From positions 623,893 through 687,892 of the forward strand of contig OY970126.1 of NCBI GenBank assembly GCA_963705915.1: a stretch of 64,000 nt of DNA, given 5' to 3'. The notes under the pieces are model-generated. The model worked only from the letters and a program-made list of their open reading frames with translations, had not been told where the DNA came from and ran no database searches. Both the position numbers and the translations under genes were made by a program. The stretch is from an uncultured bacterium (GTDB taxonomy: Bacteria; Patescibacteriota; Minisyncoccia; UBA6257; 2-01-FULL-56-20). Of the stretch, positions 2,883-26,102 are shown piece after piece; positions within the stretch are counted from its first letter, which is position 1, and each line of letters opens with the position of its first letter.

Positions 2883-3539
2883 TCATTTTTTAATCTTTTT
2901 GGGTGCGCCAATCTTCTTGGGCGTGGTCTTGGGCGCTATCGGCTCGTTGCTAAGGCTCGCCCAGAGATACCGGCTCGCGAGACTACGATACGGCTTCCAC
3001 GCCTCTGCAATCTTCATCGCTTGCCGCTCCGTTGGATGACCCTTCAGTTTATAGAGCTTTTTGATGGCATTCCGCAAGCCCAAGTCGCCGTAGGAAAAAA
3101 CGTCTTCGCGCCCGAGCGAGAAAATGAGGAACATTTCCGCCGTCCACGGCCCAATCCCCTTCACGGCAACGAGATGGTCCATCACCTCCTGATCCGACCA
3201 TTGATCGATCTTCTTTAAGTCAACGGTCTTATCCAGAACCTTTTTTGCCAAATCTTTTACGAAACTCACTTTCATATTCGACAGTCCAACGGCGCGAATT
3301 TTGCGTGCAGGCATTTTCAGGATATCTTTCGGCGTCGGAAATTTTTTCCGAGGCACAAGCGACGAAAAGCGTTTGAAGATTGTGTCAGCGGCCTTCACGG
3401 AAAGCTGCTGACTCGTAATCGCTTCCACGAGCGCCTCAAAATGCTTTCCACGCAAAGAAAGTTCGCGAAGCTTAATCCCCTCGATGAGTGGCTTCAAGAC
3501 CGGGTCGTTCTTCTTGAGATGAGTGAGCTGTTTGTTCAT
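2883..3539 (-). CDS. HhH-GPD family DNA glycosylase (AlkA/3-methyladenine glycosylase II-like)
   Basis: HhH-GPD core ...VAVKGIGPWTAEMFLIFSLGREDVFSYGDLGLRNA...; start set at MNKQLTHL because the longer ORF overlaps glyA. Confidence 0.7.
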   Translation of the reverse strand: MNKQLTHLKKNDPVLKPLIEGIKLRELSLRGKHFEALVEAITSQQLSVKAADTIFKRFSSLVPRKKFPTPKDILKMPARKIRAVGLSNMKVSFVKDLAKKVLDKTVDLKKIDQWSDQEVMDHLVAVKGIGPWTAEMFLIFSLGREDVFSYGDLGLRNAIKKLYKLKGHPTERQAMKIAEAWKPYRSLASRYLWASLSNEPIAPKTTPKKIGAPKKIKK

Positions 3540-4786
3540 TCGATCCCTGGCACCGGAAATTGCAGCGAAAACTTTTTTACTTTTTCTTTCATCTTCCCCA
3601 GCACAGCCGCGTCTTCCCGATGCGCGAGCGTTTCGTCGATGAGATCCGCGACCGTCTGCATGTCGCTCTCTTTGCACCCACGCGTGGTGAGGGCGGGCGT
3701 ACCCAAGCGGATACCCGAAGGATCAAGCGGTTTTCGCGGGTCGAACGGTATCATGTTTTTATTGATCGAAATGCCAACATGCTCAAGCGCCTTTTCAGCT
3801 TCTTTACCGGTGATAGCCTTGCTGCCGAAGAGATCGACGAGCATGAGATGATTATCCGTGCCACCCGAAATAATGCGATACCCTTTTGATTGCAACGCAC
3901 CGGCAAGCGCGCGGGCATTTGTGATAACTTGCCTTGCATACTCCTCAAACTCCGGTTTCAACGCCTCGCCGTAGGCAATCGCTTTTGCGGCGTTGATGTG
4001 GTCATGCGGACCGCCTTGCACGCCGGGAAATACCGACTTATCAATCGCGGCGGCAAATTTTTCTTTGCACATGATCATCGCGCCGCGCGGGCCGCGCAGC
4101 GTCTTATGCGTTGTGGCGGAAACGACGTCGCAATAGGGCACCGGATTTTCCAACTGCTTGCCGGCGATGAGCCCGGCGATGTGCGCAACATCAGCGAACA
4201 AGAACGCGCCGGATTTATCGGCAATCGCACGGAAGCGCTCCCAATCAAGCGAACGCGAATATGCCGAGAACCCCGCAAGAATCATTTTCGGTTTCTCACG
4301 CATCGCAATTTCCTCTACTTCATCCATGTCGATGAGTTCAGTCTCGCGATTCACAAAGTACGGAATGATTTTATAAAGCTTGCCAGAAAAATTGAGCGGG
4401 TGGCCGTGCGAAAGATGGCCGCCCTGGTCAAGTGAAAATCCGAGCACGGCATCGCCAGGATTCAGAAGCGCCATATAGACCGCGAGATTTGCCGGCGATC
4501 CGGAGAGCGGCTGCACATTCACGTGTTCGGCGCCGAAAAGTTCCGTTGCGCGTTCGATGGCAAGCGTTTCCGCCTGGTCGATAATTTCGTTGCCGCCATA
4601 ATAACGTTTGTTCGGATAGCCTTCGCTGTATTTATTGGTAAGCACTGAACCCATTGCCTCAAGTACGGCGCGGGAAACATAGTTCTCACTCGCGATAAGT
4701 TCAATGCCTTCTTTTTGGCGCTGCTCTTCGCGTTTGATGATTTCGTAGACAGCCCTATCCTCTTTTTCGATCGTCGGGTATTTCAT
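3536..4786 (-). CDS. glyA: Serine hydroxymethyltransferase
   Basis: 416-aa product from MKYPTIEKEDRAVYEII... with PLP-lysine region ...SATTHKTLRGPRGAMI...; the track ORF 3536..5437 has a spurious upstream extension. Confidence 0.9.
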   Translation of the reverse strand: MKYPTIEKEDRAVYEIIKREEQRQKEGIELIASENYVSRAVLEAMGSVLTNKYSEGYPNKRYYGGNEIIDQAETLAIERATELFGAEHVNVQPLSGSPANLAVYMALLNPGDAVLGFSLDQGGHLSHGHPLNFSGKLYKIIPYFVNRETELIDMDEVEEIAMREKPKMILAGFSAYSRSLDWERFRAIADKSGAFLFADVAHIAGLIAGKQLENPVPYCDVVSATTHKTLRGPRGAMIMCKEKFAAAIDKSVFPGVQGGPHDHINAAKAIAYGEALKPEFEEYARQVITNARALAGALQSKGYRIISGGTDNHLMLVDLFGSKAITGKEAEKALEHVGISINKNMIPFDPRKPLDPSGIRLGTPALTTRGCKESDMQTVADLIDETLAHREDAAVLGKMKEKVKKFSLQFPVPGIE

Positions 4787-4849
4787 GGGATACGATAATA
4801 ATATAGAGTGCGAAATGATTGCACAACTACCCTCATGCGCTCTACAATA

Positions 4850-5995
4850 ATGGACGATACCGCCATGCATGACTCTGGGTCGAAAAAAGTCATTGCGGAC
4901 CTTCTTGCCGCCGCCGACATCACAATCAATGGCAGCCGGCCGTGGGATATTAAGGTCCTGAATGAAGATTTCTATGATCGCGTATTTCGCTACGGGACGC
5001 TTGGCGTTGGCGAAGCCTACATGGACGGCTGGTGGGAATGCGAAAAACCCGACGAATTCTTCTTCCGGGCCTTCCGGGGTTCGCTCGAAGAAAAAGTGAA
5101 AAACTGGCGGACCGCCATCCACGTCTTGAAAGCGACCGTTTTTAATTATCAGAAAAAATCTCGCGCGGCCGAAGTCGCCGAACGGCATTACAACCTGAGC
5201 AACGAGCTCTATGAATATATGCTCGGTAAAATGATGGCCTACACGTGCGCGTACTGGCCGCACGCAAAAAATCTCGACGAAGCACAAAACGCCAAGCTTG
5301 ACCTTATCTGTAAAAAAATCGGCCTCAAGCCGGGCATGAAAATCTTGGACCTCGGCTGCGGATTCGGAAGCTTTATGAAATTTGCGGTCGAGCACTACAA
5401 CGTGAGCGCCGTAGGCGTGAACCTCTCCAAAGAACAAGTACGGTTTGGTCGGGAATGGTGCAAGGGCTTACCGATTGAATTCCAACTCATCGATTATCGT
5501 GAAGCAAAGGGGATGTTCGACCGCGTGATCTCAATCGGACTCACTGAGCATGTCGGCTATAAAAATTATCGAAGTCTTTTCGAGGTTGCAAATCGAGCGC
5601 TCGTCGACGACGGGTTATTCTTGCTTCACACGATCGGTAGCAATGAATCGCACGCGGCAACCGACCCGTGGATTACAAAATATATCTTTCCGAACGGCAT
5701 GCTGCCTTCGATACAACAACTTTCAGGTGCCATGGAAAAATCTTTCATCATCGAAGACCTGCACAATTTTGGCGCCGACTATGATAAGACCCTCATGGCG
5801 TGGTTTGAGAACTTTAAAAAGCACTGGCCTGAACTGCAAAAAAACGATCCGACGAATTATGACGAGCGATTTTATCGAATGTGGACGTACTATCTCCTCG
5901 CCTGCGCCGGCATGTTCCGGGCCCGCCGCGGCCAGCTCTGGCAATTCGTCTTGTCGAAAAAAGGCGTGCTCGGCGGATATACGTCCGTCCGATAA
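4850..5995 (+). CDS. cfa: Cyclopropane-fatty-acyl-phospholipid synthase family SAM-dependent methyltransferase (Cfa/BfaB-like)
   Basis: Near-collinear with E. coli Cfa: YMDGWWEC, ILDLGCGFG SAM motif, HTIGS, KYIFPNG, FRMWTYYLLACAG. Confidence 0.85.
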   Translation: MDDTAMHDSGSKKVIADLLAAADITINGSRPWDIKVLNEDFYDRVFRYGTLGVGEAYMDGWWECEKPDEFFFRAFRGSLEEKVKNWRTAIHVLKATVFNYQKKSRAAEVAERHYNLSNELYEYMLGKMMAYTCAYWPHAKNLDEAQNAKLDLICKKIGLKPGMKILDLGCGFGSFMKFAVEHYNVSAVGVNLSKEQVRFGREWCKGLPIEFQLIDYREAKGMFDRVISIGLTEHVGYKNYRSLFEVANRALVDDGLFLLHTIGSNESHAATDPWITKYIFPNGMLPSIQQLSGAMEKSFIIEDLHNFGADYDKTLMAWFENFKKHWPELQKNDPTNYDERFYRMWTYYLLACAGMFRARRGQLWQFVLSKKGVLGGYTSVR

Positions 5996-6025
5996 ATGCG
6001 ATACCATTGCGACTGCGCATAACCT

Positions 6026-7384
6026 ATGCCAAACACTGACTACCCCGCCTACGAGGAACGCAAGGCCCGTCTGAGCGATCAGATGCAAAAGATCCAGCAT
6101 GTTCGTTTGGACAAAGCGACGTCAAATCTTTTTCGAAGTCGAGAAAGGATATCAGGTGCGAAAATAGCACAAAACAAACTAAGCGTTCGGGATTTTAACC
6201 ATGTGCTCTCTGTAAATATCGAAGAGCGCTGGGCCGACATTGAAGGTATGACGACGTATGAAGACTTCGTGGACGAGACGTTGAAACATGGCTTGATGCC
6301 TGCCGTTGTCCCGCAGCTCAAAACGATTACCATCGGTGGCGCGGTGAGCGGCGTGGGCATCGAATCGACATCATTCCGCTACGGGCTTGTCCATGAAACG
6401 GTGATCGAAATGGAAATATTGCTCGCGTCCGGAGAAATAATGTTGTGCAACAAAGATAAAAACGCGGATTTATTTTACGGATTTCCAAACTCCTATGGCA
6501 CGTTCGGCTATGTTCTCCGGCTCAGGGTAAAATTATTGCCCGTGCAACGGTTCGTCAAACTCGAACACAAAAAATTCACTGATCGAATTTTGTATCTCCA
6601 AGATCTTGAGCGCGCGTGCACTTCAAACGCTCCGCGCGTTGATTTTGTTGACGGCACGATCTTCGCCTCGGATGAAATGTACATCACAACGGGAACATTC
6701 ACAAACGATGCGCCCTACACAAGCGACTACACTTATATGAACGTGTATTACCAATCGATCCGCAAGAGAAACGAAGACTATCTCCCCGTCCGCGATTATC
6801 TCTGGCGCTGGGACACCGACTGGTTCTGGTGCTCAAAGGCTATCCACGCACAAAATCCGATCATCCGAAGACTCCTCGGCAAAAAGCGCCTCAACTCCAA
6901 TTTTTATACGAAGGCTATGCGCATGAATGACCGGCTTGGCATAACAACCAAGTTCTCGGCGCTTTTTGGAGGGCGACGCGAATGGATTATCCAAGACGTT
7001 GATATCCCCATCGAAAACGCACCGGCATTTGCCGAATTCTTTTTCCAGAACATCGGCATACGACCGATCTGGATCTGTCCGATCGGATCGTACGATAAAA
7101 CCATCAAATTTCCGCTCTATCCCCTTGACCCCAAAAAACTCTATGTGAATTTTGGCTTCTGGGATTCCGTCCTGACCGATAAAGAACCGGGTCATTACAA
7201 CCGCCTCGTCGAAGCGAAAGTTTCGGAGCTTCATGGCAGAAAAGGATTATATTCCGATTCATTCTATACACCCGAGGAATTCTGGCGTGTTTACGATAAG
7301 GCAGCCTACGACGTATTAAAAGAGCGGTATGACCCGGAACACAAACTAAAAAACCTCTTTGAAAAGAGCATCCAGAAAAAATAG
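6026..7384 (+). CDS. FAD-binding (PCMH-type) oxidoreductase, BfaA-like partner of the cfa-like methyltransferase
   Basis: FAD-binding region ...ITIGGAVSGVGIESTSFRYGLVHE... and its position immediately downstream of cfa on the same strand. Confidence 0.6.
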   Translation: MPNTDYPAYEERKARLSDQMQKIQHVRLDKATSNLFRSRERISGAKIAQNKLSVRDFNHVLSVNIEERWADIEGMTTYEDFVDETLKHGLMPAVVPQLKTITIGGAVSGVGIESTSFRYGLVHETVIEMEILLASGEIMLCNKDKNADLFYGFPNSYGTFGYVLRLRVKLLPVQRFVKLEHKKFTDRILYLQDLERACTSNAPRVDFVDGTIFASDEMYITTGTFTNDAPYTSDYTYMNVYYQSIRKRNEDYLPVRDYLWRWDTDWFWCSKAIHAQNPIIRRLLGKKRLNSNFYTKAMRMNDRLGITTKFSALFGGRREWIIQDVDIPIENAPAFAEFFFQNIGIRPIWICPIGSYDKTIKFPLYPLDPKKLYVNFGFWDSVLTDKEPGHYNRLVEAKVSELHGRKGLYSDSFYTPEEFWRVYDKAAYDVLKERYDPEHKLKNLFEKSIQKK

Positions 7385-7432
7385 GCGCTGAAACTAATGT
7401 GGGTCGCTTAGCCTACGACTTGCGAAATTGTA

Positions 7433-8233
7433 TTACGATTCAGTGAGTTCAGTGTTATGATCGCTAGCGAATTGAGCAAAACGCAGAAGACGCGCAATAG
7501 CCTCATAAGCTTCAAACTCTGAGATTTCAGAAGCTGTTCCGTGTGAGGCATTATCGCGCCAATAGTTGAGCAGATCGGTTAAGTTTCGGAACGTAGCGGC
7601 AAGCGGACTTGTAATTCCTTGAACAATAGTATCTTCCGTACGGCGCCTGCCACTTGCAGAGCGATAGGTTCTCATAACCGCAGCTTCGTCTCCAGTTTTC
7701 TGAATAGCTAGATGTAGTAAAACTGATTCTGCTGCTGCTCCGCACATGACGCAACATGCAAGATAAGCTGTAGAAGAATAGCATTTCACAGCTTCTTGTG
7801 CCCTTTGAAAAAATCCCTCACCAAATCTCGCTCGAAAGCGCCCGAATAGCTCAGCAACACGAGCAGGTTCCACGGGTACGAATACGTTATGTTCCGTATC
7901 AGCTAACCAAGCACGTCCGATAGTGGTTATTGAGTAACCATCTCCACCAGAACCTCCATCTGTAATTTGCTCACCTTGCCGCCTGACACTAGGCCGAAGT
8001 ATCCCGCGCCTACAAAGTTCCCATGCGGCCTCATAAAATACTGACGAGAGGGGCGCAATCCTTACTTCAATATCGTGAGGGTTTTGGATCGGTACATTCT
8101 CCACCTCCTGCGCATAGGCACGACAAACTCTGGGAATATAGACATCGTAGCCATATTCAGCGGCAGCTTGTGGGGTTGCTGGGCGGCGAAGAAAGGAGAT
8201 TAGAAATTGGATAGCATCATCTACTCGTGGCAT
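7433..8233 (-). CDS. Hypothetical protein with a C-terminal R-x4-H motif (possible HEPN-like domain)
   Basis: 266-aa ORF with no recognisable family; contains NYWRDNASHG (R-x4-H). Confidence 0.4.
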   Translation of the reverse strand: MPRVDDAIQFLISFLRRPATPQAAAEYGYDVYIPRVCRAYAQEVENVPIQNPHDIEVRIAPLSSVFYEAAWELCRRGILRPSVRRQGEQITDGGSGGDGYSITTIGRAWLADTEHNVFVPVEPARVAELFGRFRARFGEGFFQRAQEAVKCYSSTAYLACCVMCGAAAESVLLHLAIQKTGDEAAVMRTYRSASGRRRTEDTIVQGITSPLAATFRNLTDLLNYWRDNASHGTASEISEFEAYEAIARLLRFAQFASDHNTELTES

Positions 8234-8314
8234 ATGCTCTGACTTTATCAGAATTTATAGCGAAAACCAATCTGGGTTCGTTAACGCATTAATGGTTGCT
8301 CGCTTAATTTCGTT

Positions 8315-9352
8315 CTATTGGTCGTTCCCGCTAGATGCTTTAGTGTTGAATATCGGAAAGTTTGCGTATGTGCTTATTTGTTGCGGTAGCTCCTTTGTAG
8401 CTGTTGCATAAATGCTCATCCCTTGAGCTTCGCTCCACGTATAAAATTTGTCTTGATCTATGAGAAAAATCGCTTGAGCATTGTATGCCCGTGAATCGTA
8501 AGAACGCTCATACGTTATATCAAAGACATCAAATGATATCCAACCATTACCCCTTGCGCTTGTATCAAATTGACCTTGAGCAATTTCTCCCTTTTCTAAC
8601 TTAGCTTGTGTTATCCAGTTAAGCCCAATGCCTTGGAAAGGCGACGTCTCCTGACCAGCGACTCCCATCCACTGATTTTGCTGTTTATCGTATATAAAAC
8701 TATCGTGAGCGACCGTAAGATTCTGAATTTCAATGTCGCCAAGATTTTCCACTGCGAAAGTGTATGAAGAGGAAGAATTTTGTCTTAGGAGATAAGTTAC
8801 ATTTGGCGCGATGGGGATATTATTCTCTATAAAACTTTCTATTGGCGGTACCGCTCCGGTAGCGACGTATCCACTAATGATAAAACATACTATGAAAAGA
8901 AAAGCCGCAAAAATATATCGTAACCAAACTTTTCCTCCTGGCTCCGCCTGAAACAAACGGTTGAATAAATTAGCTCGTTTTAATGCCCATGATATAAATG
9001 TGAGCAGTATGAGCGTACCTGTAAGTCCTAGTATGATCGTGAGTCCTTGTTCGCCAAAAATATCGTTGAATTCTAAAAGCCAATAGGCAATAAATCCAAG
9101 CCCGCCTAGGAAAATAACATTTTCGAAAAGTGTTAGCCGCATATCACCTCTCTTATTAGGGAAGGTTTCCCAGACTTCGAGCCACAAAATGCCCACCGCC
9201 GTCAGCGACAAAAAAGATAGGCCGACAGAAAATGGCCTTATATTTAAACTCTGAAAGAATATCGTAAGAGCAACAAAAATTGCTAGAACTTCAAGAAGGT
9301 CGTGATTTTTTTCTATATATGTCCTTATCGTTATCTTCGTCTCTTCGTTCAT
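8315..9352 (-). CDS. Hypothetical polytopic membrane protein with a C-terminal extracytoplasmic domain
   Basis: Multiple N-terminal hydrophobic helices; lower GC than the flanking core genes. Confidence 0.5.
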   Translation of the reverse strand: MNEETKITIRTYIEKNHDLLEVLAIFVALTIFFQSLNIRPFSVGLSFLSLTAVGILWLEVWETFPNKRGDMRLTLFENVIFLGGLGFIAYWLLEFNDIFGEQGLTIILGLTGTLILLTFISWALKRANLFNRLFQAEPGGKVWLRYIFAAFLFIVCFIISGYVATGAVPPIESFIENNIPIAPNVTYLLRQNSSSSYTFAVENLGDIEIQNLTVAHDSFIYDKQQNQWMGVAGQETSPFQGIGLNWITQAKLEKGEIAQGQFDTSARGNGWISFDVFDITYERSYDSRAYNAQAIFLIDQDKFYTWSEAQGMSIYATATKELPQQISTYANFPIFNTKASSGNDQ

Positions 9353-9513
9353 GCATTTAGAATATCAAGCATCGGACATAATTACTAACGTGGTTCTTTT
9401 GCTTAAAAACGCTGATTTGAACGCTGATCTCGGCGAAAATTAGCTTGAGTAGCGGACTGCAATTTAAAATGCAAGACACTGCGAACGTCTAAAAGAACCT
9501 TTCATTGAAGAGG

Positions 9514-10287
9514 TCAATGCTTAGAAGCAATTTTTTTAATACCTCTACACTTGGGATAATTCTCACAGCCGAGAAAGAGGCCATAGGGCCCCTTGCGAGG
9601 AAACATCCTGCCACCACATTTATCGCACATCTCTTTTTCGGAGTCGGGTTTTATGATACCAGCTTCAATAAGTGGTTTTTTTGAAAGATCATCGGCTGCT
9701 TGGTTTTGTTCCCGCGGAACCCATTCAATTTCAAATTCCCGCGATTCTAAAAGCTTTAATGCTCGTTCTAGTTGCGCCGCCAAGTGAGGTGCGTCTTTGT
9801 GCGGCATCCAGATCGTTTTCTTTTTATCTTTCCATCCCCATTCCTTGGAAATCATCCTACACACTAAATCACTATCTCCGTGAATCTTAATGCTACCTTC
9901 AAGTTTTAAATCCTTAACTTGCTCTAATGCCTTAATTAATCCAGTATACTCGGCAAAATTATTAGTCATGTATTCGCCCTTGCCAATAAGTTGTGCGTCT
10001 TGGGCGATAACCACCCCGTCTTTTTTAATCAGCCAACCATAACTTGCGGTGCCATTGTTATTGGGTTCACAAGCGCCATCAAAATTAATTTCAATTGCAA
10101 ATTCTTTATTCTCTCTCTTTAAAAATCCTTTAAGCCATTCCTCTGCTTCTTCCTTGGTTTTACAGGCCTTATATCGTGGCCTGCTTTGTCGCTGCACTTT
10201 TGCCTGGCATTCTTCCCAGCTCGTCACAATCCCTTGTTCGTTAGTAGCAGGTAAATAGTAGCCGTAGAATTTTTGCTTCTTTCCCAT
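9514..10287 (-). CDS. rnhA: Ribonuclease H (RNase HI family) with an N-terminal hybrid-binding (caulimovirus VI-like) domain and a C-terminal topoisomerase-type C4 zinc ribbon
   Basis: N-terminal KFYGYYLPATNEQGIVTSWEECQAKV...EEAEEWL; RNase H core EINFDGACEPNNNGTASYGW...FAEYTGLIKAL...IHGDSDLV; C-terminal CDKCGGRM...GCENYPKCRGI. Confidence 0.65.
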   Translation of the reverse strand: MGKKQKFYGYYLPATNEQGIVTSWEECQAKVQRQSRPRYKACKTKEEAEEWLKGFLKRENKEFAIEINFDGACEPNNNGTASYGWLIKKDGVVIAQDAQLIGKGEYMTNNFAEYTGLIKALEQVKDLKLEGSIKIHGDSDLVCRMISKEWGWKDKKKTIWMPHKDAPHLAAQLERALKLLESREFEIEWVPREQNQAADDLSKKPLIEAGIIKPDSEKEMCDKCGGRMFPRKGPYGLFLGCENYPKCRGIKKIASKH

Positions 10288-10387
10288 ATAGCGTTGATTT
10301 TACGCCTACTTAAAGCTAAACTGAAGCCATAATTTAATATAAGATTGTTGGCCTAAACCAAGCATTTGCTTGGCATGGCATTACCTA

Positions 10388-10439
10388 AGTCCCATCGCTG
10401 ATACCAAACGCCACGTTTGGCCTGCTCAGCGATGGGCCA
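10388..10439. repeat. Nested palindrome: 11-bp inverted repeat CCCATCGCTGA/TCAGCGATGGG enclosing an inner hairpin CCAAACG-CCA-CGTTTGG
   Basis: Read directly from the sequence, between divergent genes; the AACGCCACG motif recurs inverted at about 10463. Confidence 0.6.
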
Positions 10440-10532
10440 CACTCGAAAGGGTGCGTAAAGCCAGCGTGGCGTTTTGTGTTTTACAGAAACCCCACATTGG
10501 CCAATTAAAGGCCGATTTTTATTTCTATCAAA

Positions 10533-10976
10533 ATGAAAAAGCAGTCTTCGTTCGGAATTATCGTAACTATTCTCGTGTTCTTAGTAATCGGTGCATTTTG
10601 GTGGAGTATCGGACAAGTGAACCCAAACGTGCAAGCCAACAACACTGCCTCGACCCCAATCGTTGTGACTGCTGCAAAGATTGAAAGCGATTATACGAAC
10701 AACGAGATTTCTGCTGACGACCAGTATAAAGGCCAGTATATTCAGGTATCGGGTTTCCTTAGCTCAATCAGTAAAGGTATCACCGGAAGCCCATATATCG
10801 TGATTGGAACAAATTCACAGGACGTAGGAAGCATTGAATGTTCTTTTAGCGATAGCGATGATGCCGCACTTGCGACCCTTAGCGCAGGGAATCCCATTAC
10901 AGTAGAGGGCATTGGAAACGGATATGTGATGATAAATGATTGTTCTATTGTGTCTGGATCTACGACAATGCAATAG
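10533..10976 (+). CDS. Membrane-anchored protein with an OB-fold (tRNA_anti-like) extracytoplasmic domain
   Basis: N-terminal TM helix followed by a pattern resembling tRNA_anti-like OB-fold proteins (...YKGQYIQVSGFLSSISKG...IVIG...). Confidence 0.45.
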   Translation: MKKQSSFGIIVTILVFLVIGAFWWSIGQVNPNVQANNTASTPIVVTAAKIESDYTNNEISADDQYKGQYIQVSGFLSSISKGITGSPYIVIGTNSQDVGSIECSFSDSDDAALATLSAGNPITVEGIGNGYVMINDCSIVSGSTTMQ

Positions 10977-11675
10977 CTATTTGTTCCAGAAAGTTTCAGG
11001 GTGTATCGCTCGTTTTGAGCAACAATTAGCTCAATCCGTGACCCTGAATTTTTTGGGATTTTAGCTAGTGCTTCAGTTAGAAGATTTATAGGCACAATTA
11101 CTCTTTTTGAGCTGCATTTCCTCAATGAAACTTTTAGAACATTTAGGTCATTTGCAGCTATGTTGAAATTATGCTATAATCGAAGAACCATTAGATACTC
11201 CAGTTCGTCTTGTGTCGGTGGTTCTACAATTGAATAGGCTCCAGATTCTCTGCGGGTGCTCTGTCTTATAGTTTGACAACATCCACCGCATTAACGCGGC
11301 TCTATCGTTGATTTCGTGAAGCCAACCCTAAATTCCTTGGTGAAGTTTTGTCCAGGCATGTTGAACTAGCAGGGCAAGGTCTATAAATAGATAGGGGTTG
11401 GCCGCCGGTAAAAGAGGTTATTAAAATCCATTCGGCAACACAGTAAAAACCTGGTTCTGTCCTATTCATCCATAGCTTTTTTATAATTTCCGCTCGTCGG
11501 ATAGTAAAAACGTATGCCTAATAAAGTGAAAGTGTTTAATTAAGCTGCTATTAAACATAACTTGTTGGCTTTGTTACTAGCGTAGATATATATAAATCCC
11601 GCACGCGCATTTAAGCTTTTTGCAAAAAGTAATTTTTTTGAAAAAACTTTTCTGCGTTTTTTTCTATTCCCAAAA

Positions 11676-12371
11676 TTGCCCATTTTCTCTAGAATGGGTA
11701 TTATGGCTGGAAAAATATCACAGCATACCAGAGGTTTCTGGTTGAAGAAGTTTAAAGAACAAACTGACGAACTAAAGACAAAACTTAAGGCAGACCCTTT
11801 TGAAAGGGCACACTGCCAAGAGATGGCTCTGGCATTTATGTTCCTCTACTTGTTTGTAGAGGCCAGTGTAGATGAGCTGGTCTGGAGAATTTTGCCTCAG
11901 GCGACAATTATTCAATCTGGGGGAACCACACTTACCGAATATGGAAAGTACAAAGAAAAAAAGCTTTCACTAAAAGGTAAACTCGAATTCTTCTTTTCAT
12001 TATTTCCCAAAACAGTTACGTTTAAGGAATTTTTTGACCTAAAGCAAAAATTGGATTCGCTAGTAAAGATTCGTAATAAAGGCTTTCACTTGGAAGAAAT
12101 GTCTTGGAAGACACCGGACGACTTAGAGCATTACGATTCAAAGAAGGAGATTCCGATCAAGTTTGCCAAGGATCTTACAGTTAAGAATTTAAAAGCGCAG
12201 GTTGATGTGACGAGAGAATTTATTGACGAGCTAAAAGAACTTACAAATAAAGGCTTTGATAATTTAGAAATAGATGTTTTGTTTGATGGTGTGAATAAAA
12301 AAATGAAGTTTGCAGATTGGCATTTCGAACAGTTCGAAAAGAACTGGGCTGAATTTATACCAGAACCTTAG
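11676..12371 (+). CDS. Hypothetical protein (island cargo)
   Basis: 231-aa ORF in an AT-rich region; no recognisable motif. Confidence 0.45.
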   Translation: MPIFSRMGIMAGKISQHTRGFWLKKFKEQTDELKTKLKADPFERAHCQEMALAFMFLYLFVEASVDELVWRILPQATIIQSGGTTLTEYGKYKEKKLSLKGKLEFFFSLFPKTVTFKEFFDLKQKLDSLVKIRNKGFHLEEMSWKTPDDLEHYDSKKEIPIKFAKDLTVKNLKAQVDVTREFIDELKELTNKGFDNLEIDVLFDGVNKKMKFADWHFEQFEKNWAEFIPEP

Positions 12372-12495
12372 ACTCATAGTTCCGTTGGTGTTCTATTTAG
12401 GATGAGGTGATAATATAGGGGTACTAATATAAAAGGGCGACGGTTTTAATCAATCTTATGTTTACCGATAACACAATCAATCTTATGGATACCCG

Positions 12496-12657
12496 ATGCT
12501 TTCGGAGCAGGCCTTACAGCGTTTTAAAGAACTCTATCGCAGGCGATTCAATGTGGAACTTAGCGACCAGCAAGTAGCAGAGATAGCCACAAATTTTCTA
12601 GCACTTTTTCAGTTAGTTTATAAAGCGAAAAGTGCGGTTGCTAAAAACGATTCTTAA
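12496..12657 (+). CDS. Small helical protein (53 aa) immediately upstream of the serine recombinase; candidate excision/directionality factor or regulator
   Basis: Hand-translated ORF MLSEQALQRFKELYRRRFNVELSDQQVAEIATNFLALFQLVYKAKSAVAKNDS; absent from the track because it is under 60 aa. Confidence 0.3.
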   Translation: MLSEQALQRFKELYRRRFNVELSDQQVAEIATNFLALFQLVYKAKSAVAKNDS

Positions 12658-12706
12658 CGAACCGGGACTTTTTTATAGGACGGTGTGATAGTAAAACTTA
12701 TTAGCT

Positions 12707-14335
12707 ATGTCAGATATTCCGAAAATAAAGTATTTTCTCTATGCTCGTAAATCTAGCGAGGACGATAGACAGCTCCTATCTATTCCCGCACAAATAGATG
12801 AGCTCAAAGTTCTTGCTGCTCGCGAAGAACTTGAAATTATAGAGATTATTCAAGAGGAGAAATCAGCAAAGGCCCCCGGGCGAGAGCACTTCAACAACAT
12901 GCTTGCGCGAATTCACGCAGGCGAAGCGCAAGGTATCATCGTTTGGAAATTAGACCGTTTAGCCCGTAATCCGATAGATGGCGGCAATATCATGTGGATG
13001 ATGCAAAATAGCGTTATCAAGCACATACGCACATTTGATCGTAGCTGTCTGCCTACGGACAATGTGCTAATGATGGCTTTTGAGTTTGGTATGGCCAATC
13101 AATTCATTAAGGAGTTAAGCGCAGGCACAAGGCGCGGCATGGATAAAAAAGCGCGAATGGGTTGGCTGCCTGGGTTAGTAACGCTTGGCTATTACAACAA
13201 TAAGTACGCAGATAAAGGAGCCAAGGATATTCGCCCCGACCCGGAACAGTTTCCAATTGTTCGTAAGTTATGGGATATGCTCATCTATGAACGCTTTTCA
13301 GTTCAAAGGATATACGAGATTGCTGTAGATGAATTGGGTTTGCGAAAACGCAATGGGCGCAAGCCAAGTAGAAGCAAAATTTATGAGATATTTAAAAACC
13401 CGTTCTATTATGGATATTTCCTTTACAAAGGAGAGCTATATAAGGGCAGTCATGAGCCAATGATAACGAAAGAAGAATTTGATACGGCGCAGGCAATAAT
13501 TGAAGGCAGGAGTGTCCCCAAGCCTCGCATTCATAGTTTTTTCTTTACAGGAACAACGCGATGCGGCGAATGTGGTTCAGCTATTGTTTCAGACCCTAAG
13601 ATCAAACGCCAAAAGAACGGAAACGTTCACGAATATATCTATGCTCGCTGCACCAAGCGCAACAATCCACAATGTAGTCAACGACATACTGCTCAAAAGA
13701 TATTTGAAGAACAAGCAATAGAAATACTTAGTAGCATAGAGATACCGGAGGAATTTCATAACTGGGCTGTAAGCGTATTACGTGAATCAACAGCGGATGA
13801 AGCGGCCAGCAGAGATGCTATCCTTTCGGCGCATCGTAAAAACTATGATGCGTGCGCGCGAAAATTAGATACGTTGATTGATATGCGAGCAAGCAACGAA
13901 ATTAACGAAGATGAGTTTGCAACAAAGAAGGTCGAAGTTACTGCAGAAAAAGATAGAGCAATGGAACTTATGAATGAAGCAGATAATCGCGTGGAGCACT
14001 GGCTAGAATATGCAGAACAGGCACTCACATTCGCGCAAACAGCAAAAGACCGCTTCGAGAATGGCAATAATGATGTACGGCGGGCGATACTCCTTACGCT
14101 TGGTGCGAACCTCACACTAAAAGACAACAAACTAAGTATTTCTTTAGCAAAACCCCTTGTCGTACTTCAAAACGCTGCAAAAGCAATAAGAGAAATACAC
14201 GATGCGTGCGAACCTCAAAAAGCCCAATTAAAAGCTAGTGAGATTGCAAAAGTCTATTCAGAAAATCCCGTATTGGGTGCCTCACGGGAATCGGACCCGT
14301 ATTGCCGCTGCCACAGAGCGGAGCTTTACCATTAA
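12707..14335 (+). CDS. Large serine recombinase (resolvase/invertase N-domain, recombinase domain, zinc ribbon); site-specific integrase
   Basis: N-terminal YARKSSEDDRQLLSIPAQ catalytic region, long recombinase domain and cysteine cluster CGECGS...C..C. Confidence 0.85.
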   Translation: MSDIPKIKYFLYARKSSEDDRQLLSIPAQIDELKVLAAREELEIIEIIQEEKSAKAPGREHFNNMLARIHAGEAQGIIVWKLDRLARNPIDGGNIMWMMQNSVIKHIRTFDRSCLPTDNVLMMAFEFGMANQFIKELSAGTRRGMDKKARMGWLPGLVTLGYYNNKYADKGAKDIRPDPEQFPIVRKLWDMLIYERFSVQRIYEIAVDELGLRKRNGRKPSRSKIYEIFKNPFYYGYFLYKGELYKGSHEPMITKEEFDTAQAIIEGRSVPKPRIHSFFFTGTTRCGECGSAIVSDPKIKRQKNGNVHEYIYARCTKRNNPQCSQRHTAQKIFEEQAIEILSSIEIPEEFHNWAVSVLRESTADEAASRDAILSAHRKNYDACARKLDTLIDMRASNEINEDEFATKKVEVTAEKDRAMELMNEADNRVEHWLEYAEQALTFAQTAKDRFENGNNDVRRAILLTLGANLTLKDNKLSISLAKPLVVLQNAAKAIREIHDACEPQKAQLKASEIAKVYSENPVLGASRESDPYCRCHRAELYH

Positions 14336-14471
14336 GCTAGAGGCACCATATCTCGCAGCTGCGAATCGTCTTTAATCTATACTCATTTGAATATTTTTTC
14401 AACCGCAGCGCATAATCTCGAGCGCAACACCATTTGACCATCCTTCGTATTCTTTATAAAATAATTAAACT

Positions 14472-17466: not shown

Positions 17467-17537
17467 GCGGGTATCGTATAACGGCATTACCACAGGTTTC
17501 CAACCTGTTGACAGGGGTCCGACTCCCCTTACCCGCT
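17467..17537 (+). tRNA. tRNA-Gly (anticodon UCC), atypical T-loop (TCCGACT, C at position 55)
   Basis: Perfect 7-bp acceptor GCGGGTA/TACCCGC, anticodon stem ACAGG/CCTGT with loop TTTCCAA, T-stem AGGGG/CCCCT; D-stem has one mismatch. Confidence 0.55.
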
Positions 17538-17718
17538 CATAAAATGAGTCCTATAAAAGTGGGCCTTCCCGAAGGAGGGGTAAGTGAAAATAGAGCCGTT
17601 AGTTGGAAAATTTAAATAAATAGAGATAGAATATCGAGACGCGGACCTATTATACAAGGCAATAAGCATTTGTGACGCTTTTCCTTGTTGCGGCTCCCGT
17701 CCTCAAGGAGGGACTAAC

Positions 17719-18057
17719 ATGTTTCTCTCTCGCCTTGGCCAGGACCTCGGCTCCGTATTTTGGGAGGATATTCTGCGTCACTTTGATATTCCTTTCAAGC
17801 GCCGGAGTAGCGGGGTCCTCGTAATTCTTTGCCAAGTTCATAGTGAAAAAACTCCTTCACTGCATTGCTGGCCCGACCGAAAACGTTTTTGGTGCTTCGG
17901 ATGTGGCTGGGGAGGAGACATGTTCGAGTTCGTGTATCGGAAAATGTTCGACACACGGTGCCATCCCAAAGCTCGTGATGCGAATACGCTCCAAGAACTC
18001 GAATCTGTCGAACTATTTTTTGAGCGCATAGCTCGAAAACAAACCCCCGCTCGCTGA
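17719..18057 (+). CDS. Standalone CHC2 zinc-finger protein (DnaG primase N-terminal zinc-binding domain only)
   Basis: ...CQVHSEKTPSLHCWPDRKRFWCFGCGWGGDMFEFV... matches the primase CHC2 zinc-finger pattern; RBS AAGGAGGG precedes the ATG. Confidence 0.6.
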   Translation: MFLSRLGQDLGSVFWEDILRHFDIPFKRRSSGVLVILCQVHSEKTPSLHCWPDRKRFWCFGCGWGGDMFEFVYRKMFDTRCHPKARDANTLQELESVELFFERIARKQTPAR

Positions 18058-18071
18058 GTGGGGTTCTTTTT
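18043..18071 (+). terminator. Rho-independent terminator (ACCCC...GGGGT followed by TCTTTTT)
   Basis: Hairpin spanning the stop codon of the CHC2 gene, then a T-run. Confidence 0.5.
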
Positions 18072-18221
18072 AAAAAAAGGTTCTCATATCATCTACTTAC
18101 CCGCTCCGAAATCAAGGGCTATGCGGTGGAGAGATTGTTGAGAAAAAGATATGCACGGCTAGAATTGAATCACTTTAAATAAAAGCGGCGTTGATGTGAT
18201 CGCGACCGCTTGACACGCTTT

Positions 18222-23456: not shown

Positions 23457-24767
23457 CTAGAACGCAACGTCTTCGTGCCCTTCTTCTTCCGGTGCCGCAA
23501 TCTGGTCATTCGCGCCGTCGTCATCGACAAGACCGGCAACGCCGCCTTCCTGCACTTCGTCTGGCGCGGTCTGCGAACGGACATCGATCTTCCAACCGGT
23601 GAGCTTCGCGGCGAGACGGACGTTTTGTCCACCCTTGCCGATTGCCAAGCTCAACTGATTTTCAGGAACAAACGCGCGAGCTTCACGACGTGGCAGGATT
23701 TCAACTTTTTCAACCTTTGCCGGTGAGAGGGCGTTCGCAATAAATTTTTCGGGGTCTTCCGACCATTCGGCGATATCAATTTTTTCGTTGCCGAGTTCGT
23801 TATTCACGGCCATCACACGAGTTCCACGCTGGCCCACGAGTGCGCCAACCGGATCAACACCGTCGACCTTCGACGATGCAGCAACCTTCGTACGATTGCC
23901 CGGTTCTCGCGCAATCGATTTGATCTCGATGGAATCTTCGGCGAGTTCCGGCACTTCCATGCGGAAAAGTTCGGTAACAAATTTCGGATGTGAACGAGAA
24001 AGAATGATGCCTGGCAAGCGCGTATCCTCTTGCACCGCGAGCACGAGGAAGCGAAGCCGCTCACCGGTGCGATAGTGTTCGCCTGGAATCGATTCGTTTG
24101 CGAACATCACACCAATCGTGCGGCCGAGATCGATGAAAATATTTCCTCGCTCAAAGCGCTGCACAACGCCGCTCACAATCTGCCCTTCCCTGCCGCGCCA
24201 TTCATTCAATATAGAATCGCGTTCGGACTCGCGAAGCTTTTGGAGAATTACCTGCTTTGCGGTTTGCGCTGCAATGCGTCCAAAGTCTTCGTGCGTTTCG
24301 AGCGGAAATGAAAGTTCATCGCCGAGCTCAGCGCCTTTCTTTATTTTCTTTGCTTCTTCGAGCGTGATGTCGCGCTCCGGATTGAATCGCGGGAGTTTAT
24401 GTTCGTCGTTTTCCGCTTCTGCAACAGCCGTTGCCGTCGCGACCGGCTTTGTGTGTTTGCCACGATCGTGCTTCCCTGCCGCAGCGGCTTGCCGCTCAGC
24501 TTCTTCGCGTTCAGCTTCAGCTTGAAGTTCGGCTTCGTCAACAAAACGAACCGTCGTTTCATCAACAACTTTTTTGATCTGCCAGAATTTCAGCTCGCCA
24601 GTCTTCTGATCAACGTTGCACTTCACCACCTCCCCCCTTTCGCCATATTCTTTTTTGTATGCAGCGGCGATCGATGATTCGATCACTTCTAAAACTTTAT
24701 CCGGCTCAAGGCCTTTCTCTTCAGCAACTTGCTTGAGCGCTTTTGTGAGTTCTTTTATGTTTAACAT
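23457..24767 (-). CDS. nusA: Transcription termination/antitermination factor NusA
   Basis: N-terminal domain, S1 domain (GQIVSGVVQRFERGNIFIDLG) and two KH domains (GQRGTRV..., GKGGQNVRLAAKLTGWKIDV). Confidence 0.9.
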   Translation of the reverse strand: MLNIKELTKALKQVAEEKGLEPDKVLEVIESSIAAAYKKEYGERGEVVKCNVDQKTGELKFWQIKKVVDETTVRFVDEAELQAEAEREEAERQAAAAGKHDRGKHTKPVATATAVAEAENDEHKLPRFNPERDITLEEAKKIKKGAELGDELSFPLETHEDFGRIAAQTAKQVILQKLRESERDSILNEWRGREGQIVSGVVQRFERGNIFIDLGRTIGVMFANESIPGEHYRTGERLRFLVLAVQEDTRLPGIILSRSHPKFVTELFRMEVPELAEDSIEIKSIAREPGNRTKVAASSKVDGVDPVGALVGQRGTRVMAVNNELGNEKIDIAEWSEDPEKFIANALSPAKVEKVEILPRREARAFVPENQLSLAIGKGGQNVRLAAKLTGWKIDVRSQTAPDEVQEGGVAGLVDDDGANDQIAAPEEEGHEDVAF

Positions 24768-24869
24768 TTTTTATGAAATTGTTATTAAGTTTTTATTAAA
24801 TTTTCGACTTCTTGTCCCCGTTTTGGTTTCTGCCACCACGACTTTTTTGCCGCTGCAGCTCCACTTAAA

Positions 24870-24893
24870 CGAAAAACCGCTCAGGAAGCGGCT
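24870..24893 (-). terminator. Rho-independent terminator downstream of yraN (CCGCT-TCCTG-AGCGG plus a U-run on the minus strand)
   Basis: Hairpin plus a plus-strand A-run at 24872-24876. Confidence 0.5.
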
Positions 24894-24951
24894 TAAACTC
24901 CAGTATATGTCATTGTTTATTGCGATGTCAAATGTTTATCAGGCGTGTTTA

Positions 24952-25341
24952 TCAGGCGCAATTTTCATAGTGTTTGATCCGGCGGATTATTGTTTCATTA
25001 CTCGAAAGTACTATCGCGAGAAGATCAATGCGCCATCCTTTGTCTTCGCGAATCAGATCTTGATTTTTCGCAGCAAAAAATTGAGCCACTCGCCTCATCT
25101 TTCTCAGCTTGTGCGCCGTTGCATTATCCTCCGGCGCGATCCAGTCGAATGGATTGCCCATCTCTCTTATCGTCTTCACCTCGCAGAAAACGAGCGTCCC
25201 CTCTTTTGATTTAGCAATCACATCGATCTCGCCAAATTTTCTCTTATAATTTCTATCCACAATTTTATAGCCTTTTTTAACAAGATATCCACAAGCTATC
25301 TTTTCGCCCAGTTTCCCAATCTTTTCATTGTTATTAAACAT
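24952..25341 (-). CDS. yraN: YraN-family (UPF0102) endonuclease
   Basis: ...GEKIACGYLVKKGYKIVDRNYKRKFGEIDVIA...LVFCEVKTIR... typical of YraN. Confidence 0.8.
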   Translation of the reverse strand: MFNNNEKIGKLGEKIACGYLVKKGYKIVDRNYKRKFGEIDVIAKSKEGTLVFCEVKTIREMGNPFDWIAPEDNATAHKLRKMRRVAQFFAAKNQDLIREDKGWRIDLLAIVLSSNETIIRRIKHYENCA

Positions 25342-25359
25342 TGATAAACATTTTTAATT

Positions 25360-25570
25360 TGTTTAGCGGATTACATGATTTACAATTTCTTATTAATTTA
25401 TAAAATCTCATTTACAATCCTGTTTAGCGCTTTACACGATTTATAATTATTTATTGATTTACAACAATGTTTAGCGCGACACATCAATTAAAATTCAAAT
25501 CATAAGAAATTGAGCTATTATGAGATATTATTGGTACTCGAATTTTAAATGATGTAAAGCGATAAACATT
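25360..25570. repeat. Array of three direct copies and one inverted copy of a 20-27 nt motif, TGTTTAGCG(N)TTTACA(Y)GATTTA(Y)AAT
   Basis: Copies at 25360-25386, 25421-25447 and 25468-25490; inverted copy at 25551-25570. A related tandem TGTTTATCAGGCG x2 sits at 24933-24958. Confidence 0.7.
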
Positions 25571-25600
25571 CCGGCAAACATTTTTTAATCTTTCTTTAAT

Positions 25601-25684
25601 CTTTGCCGCTTTGCCGGATTATTTTGCCGGATTTCACGCGGATTTGAATCCGGCAAAATTTAATGAAATTTTTATTGCCGGATT
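25601..25684. repeat. Cluster of 10-bp TTGCCGGATT repeats (three direct, one inverted, plus partial copies)
   Basis: Direct copies at 25611-25620, 25624-25633 and 25675-25684; inverted copy at 25647-25656; partials at 25571-25578 and 25601-25608. Confidence 0.7.
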
Positions 25685-25745
25685 CTGAGTCATCATTTCC
25701 CACTTTAGATTGACTCCTAAGGACTAACCGCGTATCGTTGTCATT

Positions 25746-26078
25746 ATGACTCCTGACACATTAAAAGAATATAAAAATAAACTTGAGAAAGAACGGGCGC
25801 TTTTAAATCAAGAAATTAAGCGAACCGAGAAGCCTGTCGACCTCGGCATTGATGTTCCTCGTTTCGAAGAAGAATCTGATGCTTCTGAAGAAGTTGGGAA
25901 CCAAATGGCAATCGCTGACGATCTCAAAGTCCGACTTGAAGATATTGAAGACGCCCTCCAAAAGATTTCAAATGGCACCTATGGAATTTGCGAGAAGTGT
26001 GATCGCCCAATCGAAAAAGAAATTTTGGATATAGACCCAGAATCTCGCTTTTGCAAGAAAGATAAAGCGAATAAATAA
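25746..26078 (+). CDS. DksA/TraR-family C4-type zinc-finger protein
   Basis: Coiled-coil N-terminus and C-terminal ...GTYGICEKCDRPIEKEIL...C..C zinc finger. Confidence 0.8.
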   Translation: MTPDTLKEYKNKLEKERALLNQEIKRTEKPVDLGIDVPRFEEESDASEEVGNQMAIADDLKVRLEDIEDALQKISNGTYGICEKCDRPIEKEILDIDPESRFCKKDKANK

Positions 26079-26102
26079 TATTTAATGAGAATTTAATGCC
26101 TC

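Follow-up and report, generated by a model that had tools for sequence, protein, structure and literature searches.

What delimits a block of low GC content between an FAD oxidoreductase gene and ftsH in an uncultured bacterium, and how did this block come to lie there? We addressed the question in a stretch of 64,000 nt (the window; its positions are meant wherever coordinates carry no locus label), in which a first-pass annotation had described the block as an integrative island mobilised by a large serine recombinase (LSR). That description held, and related genomes were found without the island's genes at this locus. Our analysis points, with a probability of roughly 0.8, to an integrative element of 6874 bp (7405-14278) that lies at the 3' end of the host's tRNA-His gene and was inserted by its own LSR, with the attachment site attP in the last codons of the LSR gene. 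The host was assigned by its FtsH homologues to the Patescibacteria (Paceibacterota/Minisyncoccia), bacteria with tiny genomes.

Composition and host locus

The GC content was 0.417 over 7405-14278, compared with a mean of 0.501 (standard deviation 0.017, minimum 0.463) for 6.9-kb segments lying outside this interval, and the 6.9-kb segment with the lowest GC content of the whole 64 kb started at 7601. Along the profile, GC content fell from approximately 0.49-0.50 in the flanks to 0.36-0.43 across about 8250-14250, with values of 0.35-0.38 over 11250-12750, which agrees with the AT-rich stretch reported earlier. The GC content at third codon positions (GC3) was 0.60 for SHMT, 0.62 for CMAS, 0.57 for the FAD gene and 0.64 for FtsH, and ranged from 0.35 to 0.45 in the island genes (0.35 in a gene of 266 aa and 0.37-0.45 in the others). 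The 266-aa gene, which the first-pass annotation had left outside, lies between the junctions described below, and its GC3, which resembles that of the island genes and not the 0.57-0.64 of CMAS, FAD, SHMT and FtsH, independently supports its place in the island.

The closest genomes available by FtsH (87-88% identity) were L009/L010, L011 and L013. Their gene order was FolD, (HhH-GPD), SHMT, tRNA-His on the minus strand, a VTT-domain gene, ftsH, DUF378, tRNA-Ile, a 198-aa gene and tRNA-Gly, with SHMT, tRNA-His and ftsH within 1-4 kb of one another. The order of tRNA-His, ftsH, DUF378, tRNA-Ile and tRNA-Gly was the same in the window. None of the island genes was present at the corresponding loci of these genomes; neither a uniform composition nor a conserved synteny of the island genes was found. 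The distance from SHMT to the 3' end of tRNA-His varied from 147 nt in L011, through a single 290-aa gene in L009, to approximately 2.9 kb in L013, and L009 and L013 carried other inserts at the same spot. The 3' side of tRNA-His is an insertion hot spot.

The tRNA-His gene, which had been overlooked, overlaps the final 61 nt of the recombinase open reading frame (ORF). It was identical to tRNA-His of L005 at 76 of 76 positions and was also identical in L011. Furthermore, it lay beside ftsH in the same place and orientation in L005, L009, L011 and L013, all of which lack the recombinase. Hence, tRNA-His is a host gene, and the same evidence ruled it out as cargo of the element. The genes CMAS and FAD were likewise ruled out as cargo, since both have a host-like GC3 and the pair occupies a different chromosomal position in L013. 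An inversion of 4800-14350 relative to L001 and L006 was also considered, and was dropped because the orientation of tRNA-His next to ftsH is the same in L009, L011 and L013.

Recombinase termini and the 5-bp shift

The recombinase matched the Pfam families Resolvase (PF00239, 5e-19), Recombinase (PF07508, 3e-12) and Zn_ribbon_recom (PF13408, 5e-7), and its catalytic residues R14, S16, Q22, R84, L85 and R87 were invariant in an alignment of 40 sequences that included the window. The nearest solved structure was the C-terminal domain of the A118 integrase (1e-4). The zinc ribbon is followed by a helical region of about 100 residues, with a weak SHOCT-like match at 386-408. The domains, the catalytic residues and the logic of the attachment sites identify the enzyme as an LSR, which is intact and conserved throughout its family. 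This family comprised 3581 homologues at E<=1e-3; besides the window's own record and one homologue at 84%, the closest were approximately 50% identical. No recombinase among 50,697 phage and 72,556 plasmid records was more than 28% identical to the LSR, and a search of recombinases in viral contigs returned distant relatives only (22-35% identical).

Alignments with these homologues ended about 20 aa short of the C-terminus of the LSR. We read the C-termini in the 120 best of the 3581 homologues. Most of them were translations of an antisense tRNA gene into which the ORF runs, such as ..LGGRGDSNSP, ..LRGWDSNPRP, ..LRGWDSNPRPAG, ..GERGDSNPQPSHPQCETLTS and ..GASRESDPYCRCHRAELYH, the last being a read-through ending as found in the window; this explains why the alignments stop early. 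The remaining C-termini of the 120 shared a conserved tail with the pattern R.LDDVRT[WC][IL]M.

We then surveyed 83 loci obtained via the family alignment (L016-L098; three from viral contigs and 80 from metagenomes), together with the window, L001 and L006. An antisense tRNA overlapped or abutted the stop codon of the LSR in 41 surveyed loci, with tRNA-Asn in 19, tRNA-His in 11, tRNA-Ala and tRNA-Trp in three each, tRNA-Ser and tRNA-Gln in two each, and tRNA-Met in one. Six further loci were classed as intron-bearing tRNAs that are invisible to ARAGORN, which brings the total at an antisense tRNA to about 47. An Rfam group I intron was located just past the LSR stop in four of these six (L054 3119-3381, L056 11606-11876, L058 2255-2517 and L064 11609-11894). 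In another 19 surveyed loci the recombinase had the native tail, that is, 13-35 extra codons with the pattern R.LDDVRT[WC][IL]M..N...F.IP.F and no tRNA. The other loci were cut by contig ends or could not be classified.

The two kinds of C-terminus are states of the element rather than clades of the enzyme, because P0053, with a tRNA-His tail, and P0120, with a native tail, share 81% identity over residues 1-530 and split at a single codon, exactly after ..LYAQNSTRG. The tail types of the family therefore place attP inside the 3' end of the LSR ORF. Moreover, displaced native tails were detected 7-11 kb ahead of the LSR, and on the strand that such an exchange predicts, in L034 (E=1e-4), L040 (E=3e-5), L050 (E=2e-4) and L069 (E=2e-4), as well as in L081 and L085, which had several copies. 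The genes neighbouring native-state recombinases included those for an HTH_36 protein, a RuvC-like nuclease, CBASS, an ImmA-like protease, a methylase, a HEPN protein and a TraG/TrwB-like coupling protein. Such neighbourhoods are typical of mobile elements and defence, and would fit elements that carry attP.

Comparison of the junction pairs across islands revealed short shared cores, which represent the final nucleotides of the acceptor stem (e.g. TGCTCCG for tRNA-Asn and TGGGT for tRNA-His) and measured 5-7 nt, or 5-11 nt if a tRNA-Gly junction (GAGCGGGTAAG) is included; the arms were otherwise unrelated. On the tRNA side, the T-loop motif (TTCGAACC or a variant) lies 9 nt beyond the core; on the side of the displaced tail a similar motif lies 14 nt out. 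The same difference appeared at the recombinase end. From the conserved Tyr codon (..YSxNP..) to the T-loop-like motif we measured 35 nt in all tRNA-state loci that were correctly anchored. Of the 15 anchored native-state loci, 14 gave 40 nt; the value of 39 nt in the remaining one, L053, stems from motif matching. For the A118/LI integrase it has been established, and for serine integrases generally proposed, that in attB the motif bound by the zinc-ribbon domain is shifted by 5 bp towards the centre compared with attP (Rutherford et al. 2013, PMC3783163). Because the observed shift matches this rule, native ends can be assigned as attP sites and tRNA ends as attR-type hybrids.

These data bear on whether the element is mobile at all. 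The interval between SHMT and tRNA-His is variable in the relatives, with different content in each, and mobility is here read from sequence; one might thus see the block as a variable AT-rich stretch of chromosome with a domesticated or decaying recombinase that overlaps a tRNA by coincidence. However, overlaps with an antisense tRNA recur for seven types of tRNA, pairs of native and integrated recombinases part at the same codon, and displaced tails lie at the far ends of other islands. With an exact 5-bp shift of the T-loop-like motif and an intact recombinase conserved across its family, we consider an immobile block extremely improbable.

Several loci contained more than one trace of insertion. 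Displaced-tail relics were found in series upstream of a single recombinase in L081 (three relics, 3074-4200) and L085 (two relics, 5626-6900), which indicates repeated insertion and decay at the same tRNA. Locus L001 (1-11709) contained two family recombinases in tandem. The first has an intact native attP-type end at 925-967, and is followed over approximately 10 kb by a Shedu-type gene (SduA_C), a trypsin-like protease, a LOOT RNA, an AAA_25 ATPase, a homologue of the 53-aa protein described below, and the 84%-identical recombinase, which ends at tRNA-His. This arrangement suggests that one element inserted beside another.

The window also contained what we read as the scar of a second island of the same design, at tRNA-Gly(TCC) (17467-18106). 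An 11-nt core, CTTACCCGCTC, at the 3' end of this tRNA (17528-17538) recurs at 18096-18106, where it reads GAGCGGGTAAG on the minus strand. A P'-like arm follows there, and its T-loop-like motif is 5 nt more distant than that of the tRNA. An ORF on the minus strand that abuts the tRNA ends in ..AHFYRTHFMSG, resembling a recombinase C-terminus, and a CHC2 zinc-finger-like ORF (17719-18057) lies inside the scar. In L005 (7167-7560), a relative whose FtsH is 80% identical, the 3' end of tRNA-His was repeated about 260 nt downstream of the tRNA as an imperfect direct repeat of 25 nt, which was followed by a Fic-like gene. This repeat is the scar of a different element at the same tRNA, of a kind typical of tyrosine integrases.

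Ends and content of the island

At the right end, the junction reads ..GAAAATCCCGTAT-TGGGT-GCCTCACGGG.., with the core at 14274-14278 coinciding with the 3' end of tRNA-His and with codon Gly524 of the LSR (14276-14278). The boundary would thus be the tRNA-His 3' end, with the crossover inside the recombinase ORF, and not the recombinase next to ftsH as first described. At the left end, we used a hidden Markov model (HMM) of the tails of tRNA-His-type relatives (L001b, L020, the three copies of L081, P0113, P0120 and L053), from which the window was excluded. Its top match in the six-frame translation of the whole window was GRLAYDLRNCI at 7402-7434 on the plus strand (E=0.0013), and the next match had an E-value of at least 0.27. 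At the nucleotide level, 7401-7418 (GGGTCGCTTAGCCTACGA) is identical at 15 of 18 nt to GGGTCGCCTGGCCTATGA at L020 1490-1507, the left end of a tRNA-His island. It also matches L001 925-942, with 3 mismatches to the shared pattern, where the intact 3' end of the native-tail LSR gene of L001 encodes ..GRIAYDLRMCIVA and a stop. The frame of the relic at 7402 ends with a stop codon (7444-7446) whose place agrees with that in L001b and L020, and the left P' arm was the second-best match of a generic DNA model of P' arms (E=0.15).

The left core TGGGT (7400-7404), 15 nt past the FAD stop codon, would accordingly be followed by a P' arm (7405-7446) that encodes the displaced native C-terminus of the recombinase, RLAYDLRNCITIQ and a stop. 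The reconstructed native LSR would have 537 aa and end in ..VYSENPVLGRLAYDLRNCITIQ and a stop. The predicted attP, as the junction of a circle, is GCTAGTGAGATTGCAAAAGTCTATTCAGAAAATCCCGTAT-TGGGT-CGCTTAGCCTACGACTTGCGAAATTGTATTACGATTCAGTGA, and the predicted attB, as the empty site, is TGAAAAGAGCATCCAGAAAAAATAGGCGCTGAAACTAATG-TGGGT-GCCTCACGGGAATCGGACCCGTATTGCCGCTGCCACAGAG (in shorter form ..GCGCTGAAACTAATG-TGGGT-GCCTCACGGGAATCGG..). We infer that the exact crossover dinucleotide lies within TGGGT, and likewise that the element is mobile at present. No meaningful direct or inverted repeats were found at the two ends of the island, and no repeat of the 18-22 nt at the tRNA-His 3' end occurred anywhere in the window. 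A 22-nt similarity at 60717-60744 was rejected as an attachment repeat, since it lies inside pyrG and is due to chance.

The first-pass annotation had placed the island at approximately 8234-14400 and its attachment sites at a palindrome (10388-10439) and/or in the spacer at 14336-14471. The sharpest drop in GC content, at about 8250, and a weak P'-like relic at 8177-8234 would suit such a left edge. However, the predicted edge lies about 830 bp further left, where the tail relic at 7400-7446 is well supported, and the GC3 of the 266-aa gene is of the island type. The palindrome is part of a full-length LOOT RNA, and other islands contain this RNA in their interior, far from either end. The spacer consists of host DNA, namely the tRNA 5' end and the ftsH promoter region; it lies beyond the intact host tRNA-His, which adjoins ftsH in island-free relatives, and homology with related recombinase modules ends at the tRNA. 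These boundaries are therefore very improbable.

The relic at 8177-8234 may have been left by a previous or nested insertion, or may be a chance similarity. It raises the question of whether the island is composite, with an older element that left the 266-aa gene and the outer attL (7400-7446), and a younger low-GC element of about 6.1 kb next to the tRNA with its P' arm near 8180. We regard a composite island as unlikely, if less so than the boundaries just discussed. Tandem P' relics do occur in L081 and L085, and in L001 a native-tail recombinase is directly followed by a second element ending at tRNA-His. In the window itself, the relic scored E of about 0.05 with a TTAGAA motif at nearly the right spacing, and the bulk GC content steps from 0.48 to 0.41 at this point. 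Against this, the spacing is 4 bp instead of 5 bp, and the DNA model of P' arms gave no support at 8193-8213 (E=12). No remnant of a recombinase 3' end precedes the relic, and the full-length recombinase HMM detected no recombinase remnants near 8150-8400. Moreover, the relic runs antisense inside the 266-aa ORF, whose GC3 is island-like, and the outer relic is most like the P' arm beside the 84%-identical recombinase module of L001.

Several observations weigh against a single element spanning 7405-14278. The left junction consists of a similarity of 11 residues or 18 nt with support from codon usage, and in the P' arm of the window the T-loop-like motif is degenerate (TGCGAAAT), with a spacing that fits. 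The weak relic coincides with the sharpest drop in GC content, so that the island could be composite. A search for the empty site via homologues of the FAD gene found nearest relatives of 68-69% identity, too distant to display an empty FAD/tRNA-His site. No circular contigs were found among the native-state loci, and a search of viral contigs with the predicted attP junction and the P' pattern gave no matches, i.e. no circle or attP sequence of this element. 

The features of the island are listed in Table 1. Domain matches agreed with the gene content reported earlier, including the 542-aa recombinase and the multi-domain RNase H. The latter matched Pfam Cauli_VI (2e-8), RNase_H (7e-10), RVT_3 (5e-14) and Zn_ribbon_Top1 (4.5e-11), as well as PHROG 531 (6e-19). 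The 266-aa and 231-aa ORFs (h266 and h231) may be HEPN-like and could perhaps be RNase toxin or defence cargo, which we offer as a lead only; single-sequence AlphaFold2 models of both had pLDDT values of 37-41 and were unusable for fold assignment. None of the PADLOC defence-system models matched in the island. No genes for replication, transfer or virions were found among the cargo, where PHROGs matched only the integrase, the RNase H and the Sie-like OB-fold protein, and no tyrosine integrase was found in 7400-14350. A prophage was ruled out, because virion structural, packaging and lysis genes are lacking and the element is only 6.9 kb long.

Table 1. Positions of the island's features and ends in the window, and of LOOT RNA matches in related loci.
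Feature	Position	Strand	Remarks
Predicted attL (B-core-P')	7375-7446	+	Host arm: FAD gene 3' end plus 15 nt; core TGGGT at 7400-7404
266-aa ORF (h266)	7433-8233	-	Rx4H motif RDNASH; GC3 0.35; Pfam DUF4145 subthreshold (E=0.012)
Weak second P'-like relic	8177-8234	+	Frame ..VAG RRRKEIRNWIASS..; generic tail HMM E=0.04-0.07
345-aa multi-pass membrane protein	8315-9352	-	No match in Pfam, PADLOC, PHROGs or NCBIfam
RNase H fusion, 257 aa	9514-10287	-	RNase H1 N-terminal hybrid-binding domain, RNase H, Top1-type C4 zinc ribbon
LOOT RNA (Rfam RF03000)	10350-10473	+	49.8 bits (gathering 46.4); full-length, model positions 1-121
Terminator-like hairpin	10496-10516		After LOOT RNA
147-aa membrane-anchored OB-fold protein	10533-10976	+	tRNA_anti-like PF12869 (2.7e-22); PHROG 8545 'Sie-like' (1.5e-11)
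AT-rich stretch, about 700 nt	10977-11675		No convincing ORF
231-aa ORF (h231), all-helical	11676-12371	+	Rx4H motif RNKGFH; HEPN_Apea subthreshold (E=0.099); no family match
Two 19-nt direct repeats, 27 nt apart	12448-12493	+	Just upstream of the 53-aa ORF; candidate operator/promoter element
53-aa two-helix protein	12496-12657	+	Ends 49 nt before the recombinase; candidate directionality factor/regulator
Large serine recombinase, 542 aa	12707-14335	+	Codons 1-524 (to 14278) element; codons 525-542 antisense tRNA-His read-through
Predicted attR (P-core-B')	14250-14300	+	P arm: recombinase codons ..VYSENPVL; B' arm: tRNA-His acceptor stem and T arm
tRNA-His(GTG)	14275-14346	-	Intact; ARAGORN and Rfam (60.4 bits); predicted integration target
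LOOT RNA, other loci	L001 5959-6085; L020 7618-7734; L034 6279-6397; L052 7352-7473; L063 7113-7230; L082 6890-7021; L097 3627-3753		

The small ORF that had been noted shortly upstream of the recombinase belongs to a conserved family. Homologues of the 53-aa protein were located upstream of the LSR on the same strand in about 60 of the 83 loci, with the consensus M.LS.EAI.EFKEIY...FG..LSD.EA.E....L..L....Y.P. Among 1.84 billion proteins, 74 cluster representatives were found at E<=1e-3, nearly all of 43-100 aa; neither Pfam nor the PDB yielded a relative. Compared with the 84%-identical module of L001, homology in the window extends only from 12458, just upstream of the 53-aa ORF, to the 5' end of the tRNA. 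The 53-aa protein is hence a conserved partner in the core module, for which an accessory or directionality role is plausible.

LOOT RNA was detected in seven of 23 other recombinase loci scanned, at 70-96 bits (eight of 24 with the window). In these seven loci it lay 2.5-6.4 kb upstream of the LSR, usually in a divergent region before the operon that ends with the recombinase, and was antisense to the LSR; only in the window was it on the same strand. It was inside the mapped island in L020 and L034, where the displaced tail was located, and between the two recombinase genes in L001. No gene was consistently found downstream of or adjoining LOOT RNA across the islands, and no described function or genetic context of this RNA was found in the literature searched.

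Outside the island, too, the locus in the window has been rearranged. The SHMT gene (3536-4789) was 86% identical to SHMT of L006, a Parcubacteria metagenome-assembled genome whose FtsH is only 79% identical, and only approximately 50% identical to SHMT of the FtsH-closest L009, L011 and L013. This pattern was not seen in the adjoining FolD and HhH-GPD genes, and suggests that SHMT was replaced by a foreign copy. In the window, the CMAS-FAD pair (4808-7384) lies between SHMT and tRNA-His; in L013 (19448-21830) it follows an Nramp gene, about 8 kb downstream of ftsH. The relatives have a VTT-domain gene between tRNA-His and ftsH, which is missing from that position in the window. A second low-GC patch (24500-26750, down to 0.31) comprised the nusA 5' end, a YraN-like gene, a 400-nt AT-rich spacer, a DksA/TraR-type zinc-finger gene and the start of a ComM-like gene, and no signs of an island were seen there. 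Finally, P0199 is a 1040-aa FtsH homologue with intein/LAGLIDADG domains (PF14528, PF14890), i.e. an intein-containing FtsH from a related lineage.

Integration model and known systems

We propose that attP lies within the last codons of the LSR, with the P arm as listed in Table 1, a crossover in TGGGT at Gly524 and the native tail as P' arm. On one side, the site attB would comprise the end of the tRNA acceptor stem together with the T arm, and on the other side the DNA that lies downstream of the tRNA. Integration would leave the tRNA intact, displace the tail of 13 codons to the opposite (left) end of the island and let the LSR ORF run into the antisense tRNA. As is known for serine integrases, the zinc-ribbon domain would read the T-loop-like motif, whose distance from the crossover is 5 bp greater in attP than in attB, and such reading could allow family members to use many different tRNA genes. 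Excision would need the LSR and an accessory factor, for which the 53-aa protein is the obvious candidate.

A more speculative extension is that the tail swap acts as a built-in sensor of the element's state. The free element would produce an enzyme with the native tail and the integrated element one that is tail-less or randomly tailed, and the tail, together with the 53-aa partner, would tune integration versus excision or the stability of the enzyme; LOOT RNA would serve this class of elements in regulation or replication. We hold this extension only tentatively and consider it possible rather than likely.

In its resolvase catalytic, recombinase and zinc-ribbon domains and in its catalytic residues, the enzyme resembles the integrases of A118/LI, Bxb1, phiC31, SPbeta (SprA) and TP901-1. 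As in serine integrases of phages and integrative and conjugative elements (ICEs), the attachment sites are short with few shared bases at the crossover, the outer motif is 5 bp nearer to the centre in attB, and a small accessory protein is expected for excision. In contrast to those integrases, the target here is the 3' end of a tRNA gene instead of a protein-coding gene, attP is predicted inside the recombinase's own ORF so that the C-terminal tail changes upon integration, and the partner is a small protein without known relatives.

The 'suicidal' tyrosine integrases of the SSV type, which belong to viruses and plasmids of archaea, also carry the site within the integrase gene, target a tRNA, split the gene and form a compact integrase-plus-att module (PMC8371274). 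Their gene, however, is cut into two inactive parts, whereas the bacterial serine recombinase described here would lose only its last 13-35 codons (13 in the window) and keep its catalytic and DNA-binding domains. A review considered recombinases with the site in their own gene to be exclusive to archaea (PMC8371274).

Classical tRNA-linked islands (P4-like elements, ICEs and prophages) share with this island the insertion at a tRNA 3' end that leaves the tRNA intact, the tRNA-proximal integrase, accessory or defence-type cargo, and the possibility of tandem arrays and scars. Such islands use tyrosine integrases and have 15-50-nt direct repeats of the 3' part of the tRNA, whereas the present family has a serine recombinase, a shared core of 5-11 nt and no repeat of a tRNA fragment. 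In mycobacteriophages with integration-dependent immunity, attP lies in the 3' end of the repressor gene and integration alters the C-terminus of the product; a tyrosine integrase is involved, and the consequence, loss of a degradation tag, has been demonstrated. In our case, the affected gene would be that of the recombinase instead of a repressor, as read from the sequence. The island hence appears ordinary in kind, and its recombination module unusual in design.

Serine integrases are the main tools for the insertion of large DNA, and nearly all natural targets described for them are protein-coding genes. In the largest survey of LSR targets published, tRNA is not mentioned. No report of a serine integrase with tRNA 3' ends as target, or with attP in its own ORF, came up in our literature search, which was incomplete, so that an earlier description is possible.

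These results identify one kind of mobile element of the Patescibacteria, and a large integrase family from uncultured lineages (3581 homologues) that appears to be aimed at a conserved end of tRNA genes. For many tRNAs, the family would provide pairs of natural attP and attB sites, and the rule of a 5-bp difference between attP and attB would be cleanly confirmed in nature. Its attachment site in the integrase gene would be an example outside the archaea and outside the tyrosine recombinases. Furthermore, the orphan LOOT RNA gains a genetic context through its link to one kind of mobile element. If the tail swap does act as a state sensor, these enzymes would be the first bacterial, serine-type counterpart of integrases with the attachment site in their own gene. 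If the near-universal T-loop and acceptor end of tRNA is indeed what they recognise, they would be natural integrases with landing sites in almost any genome.

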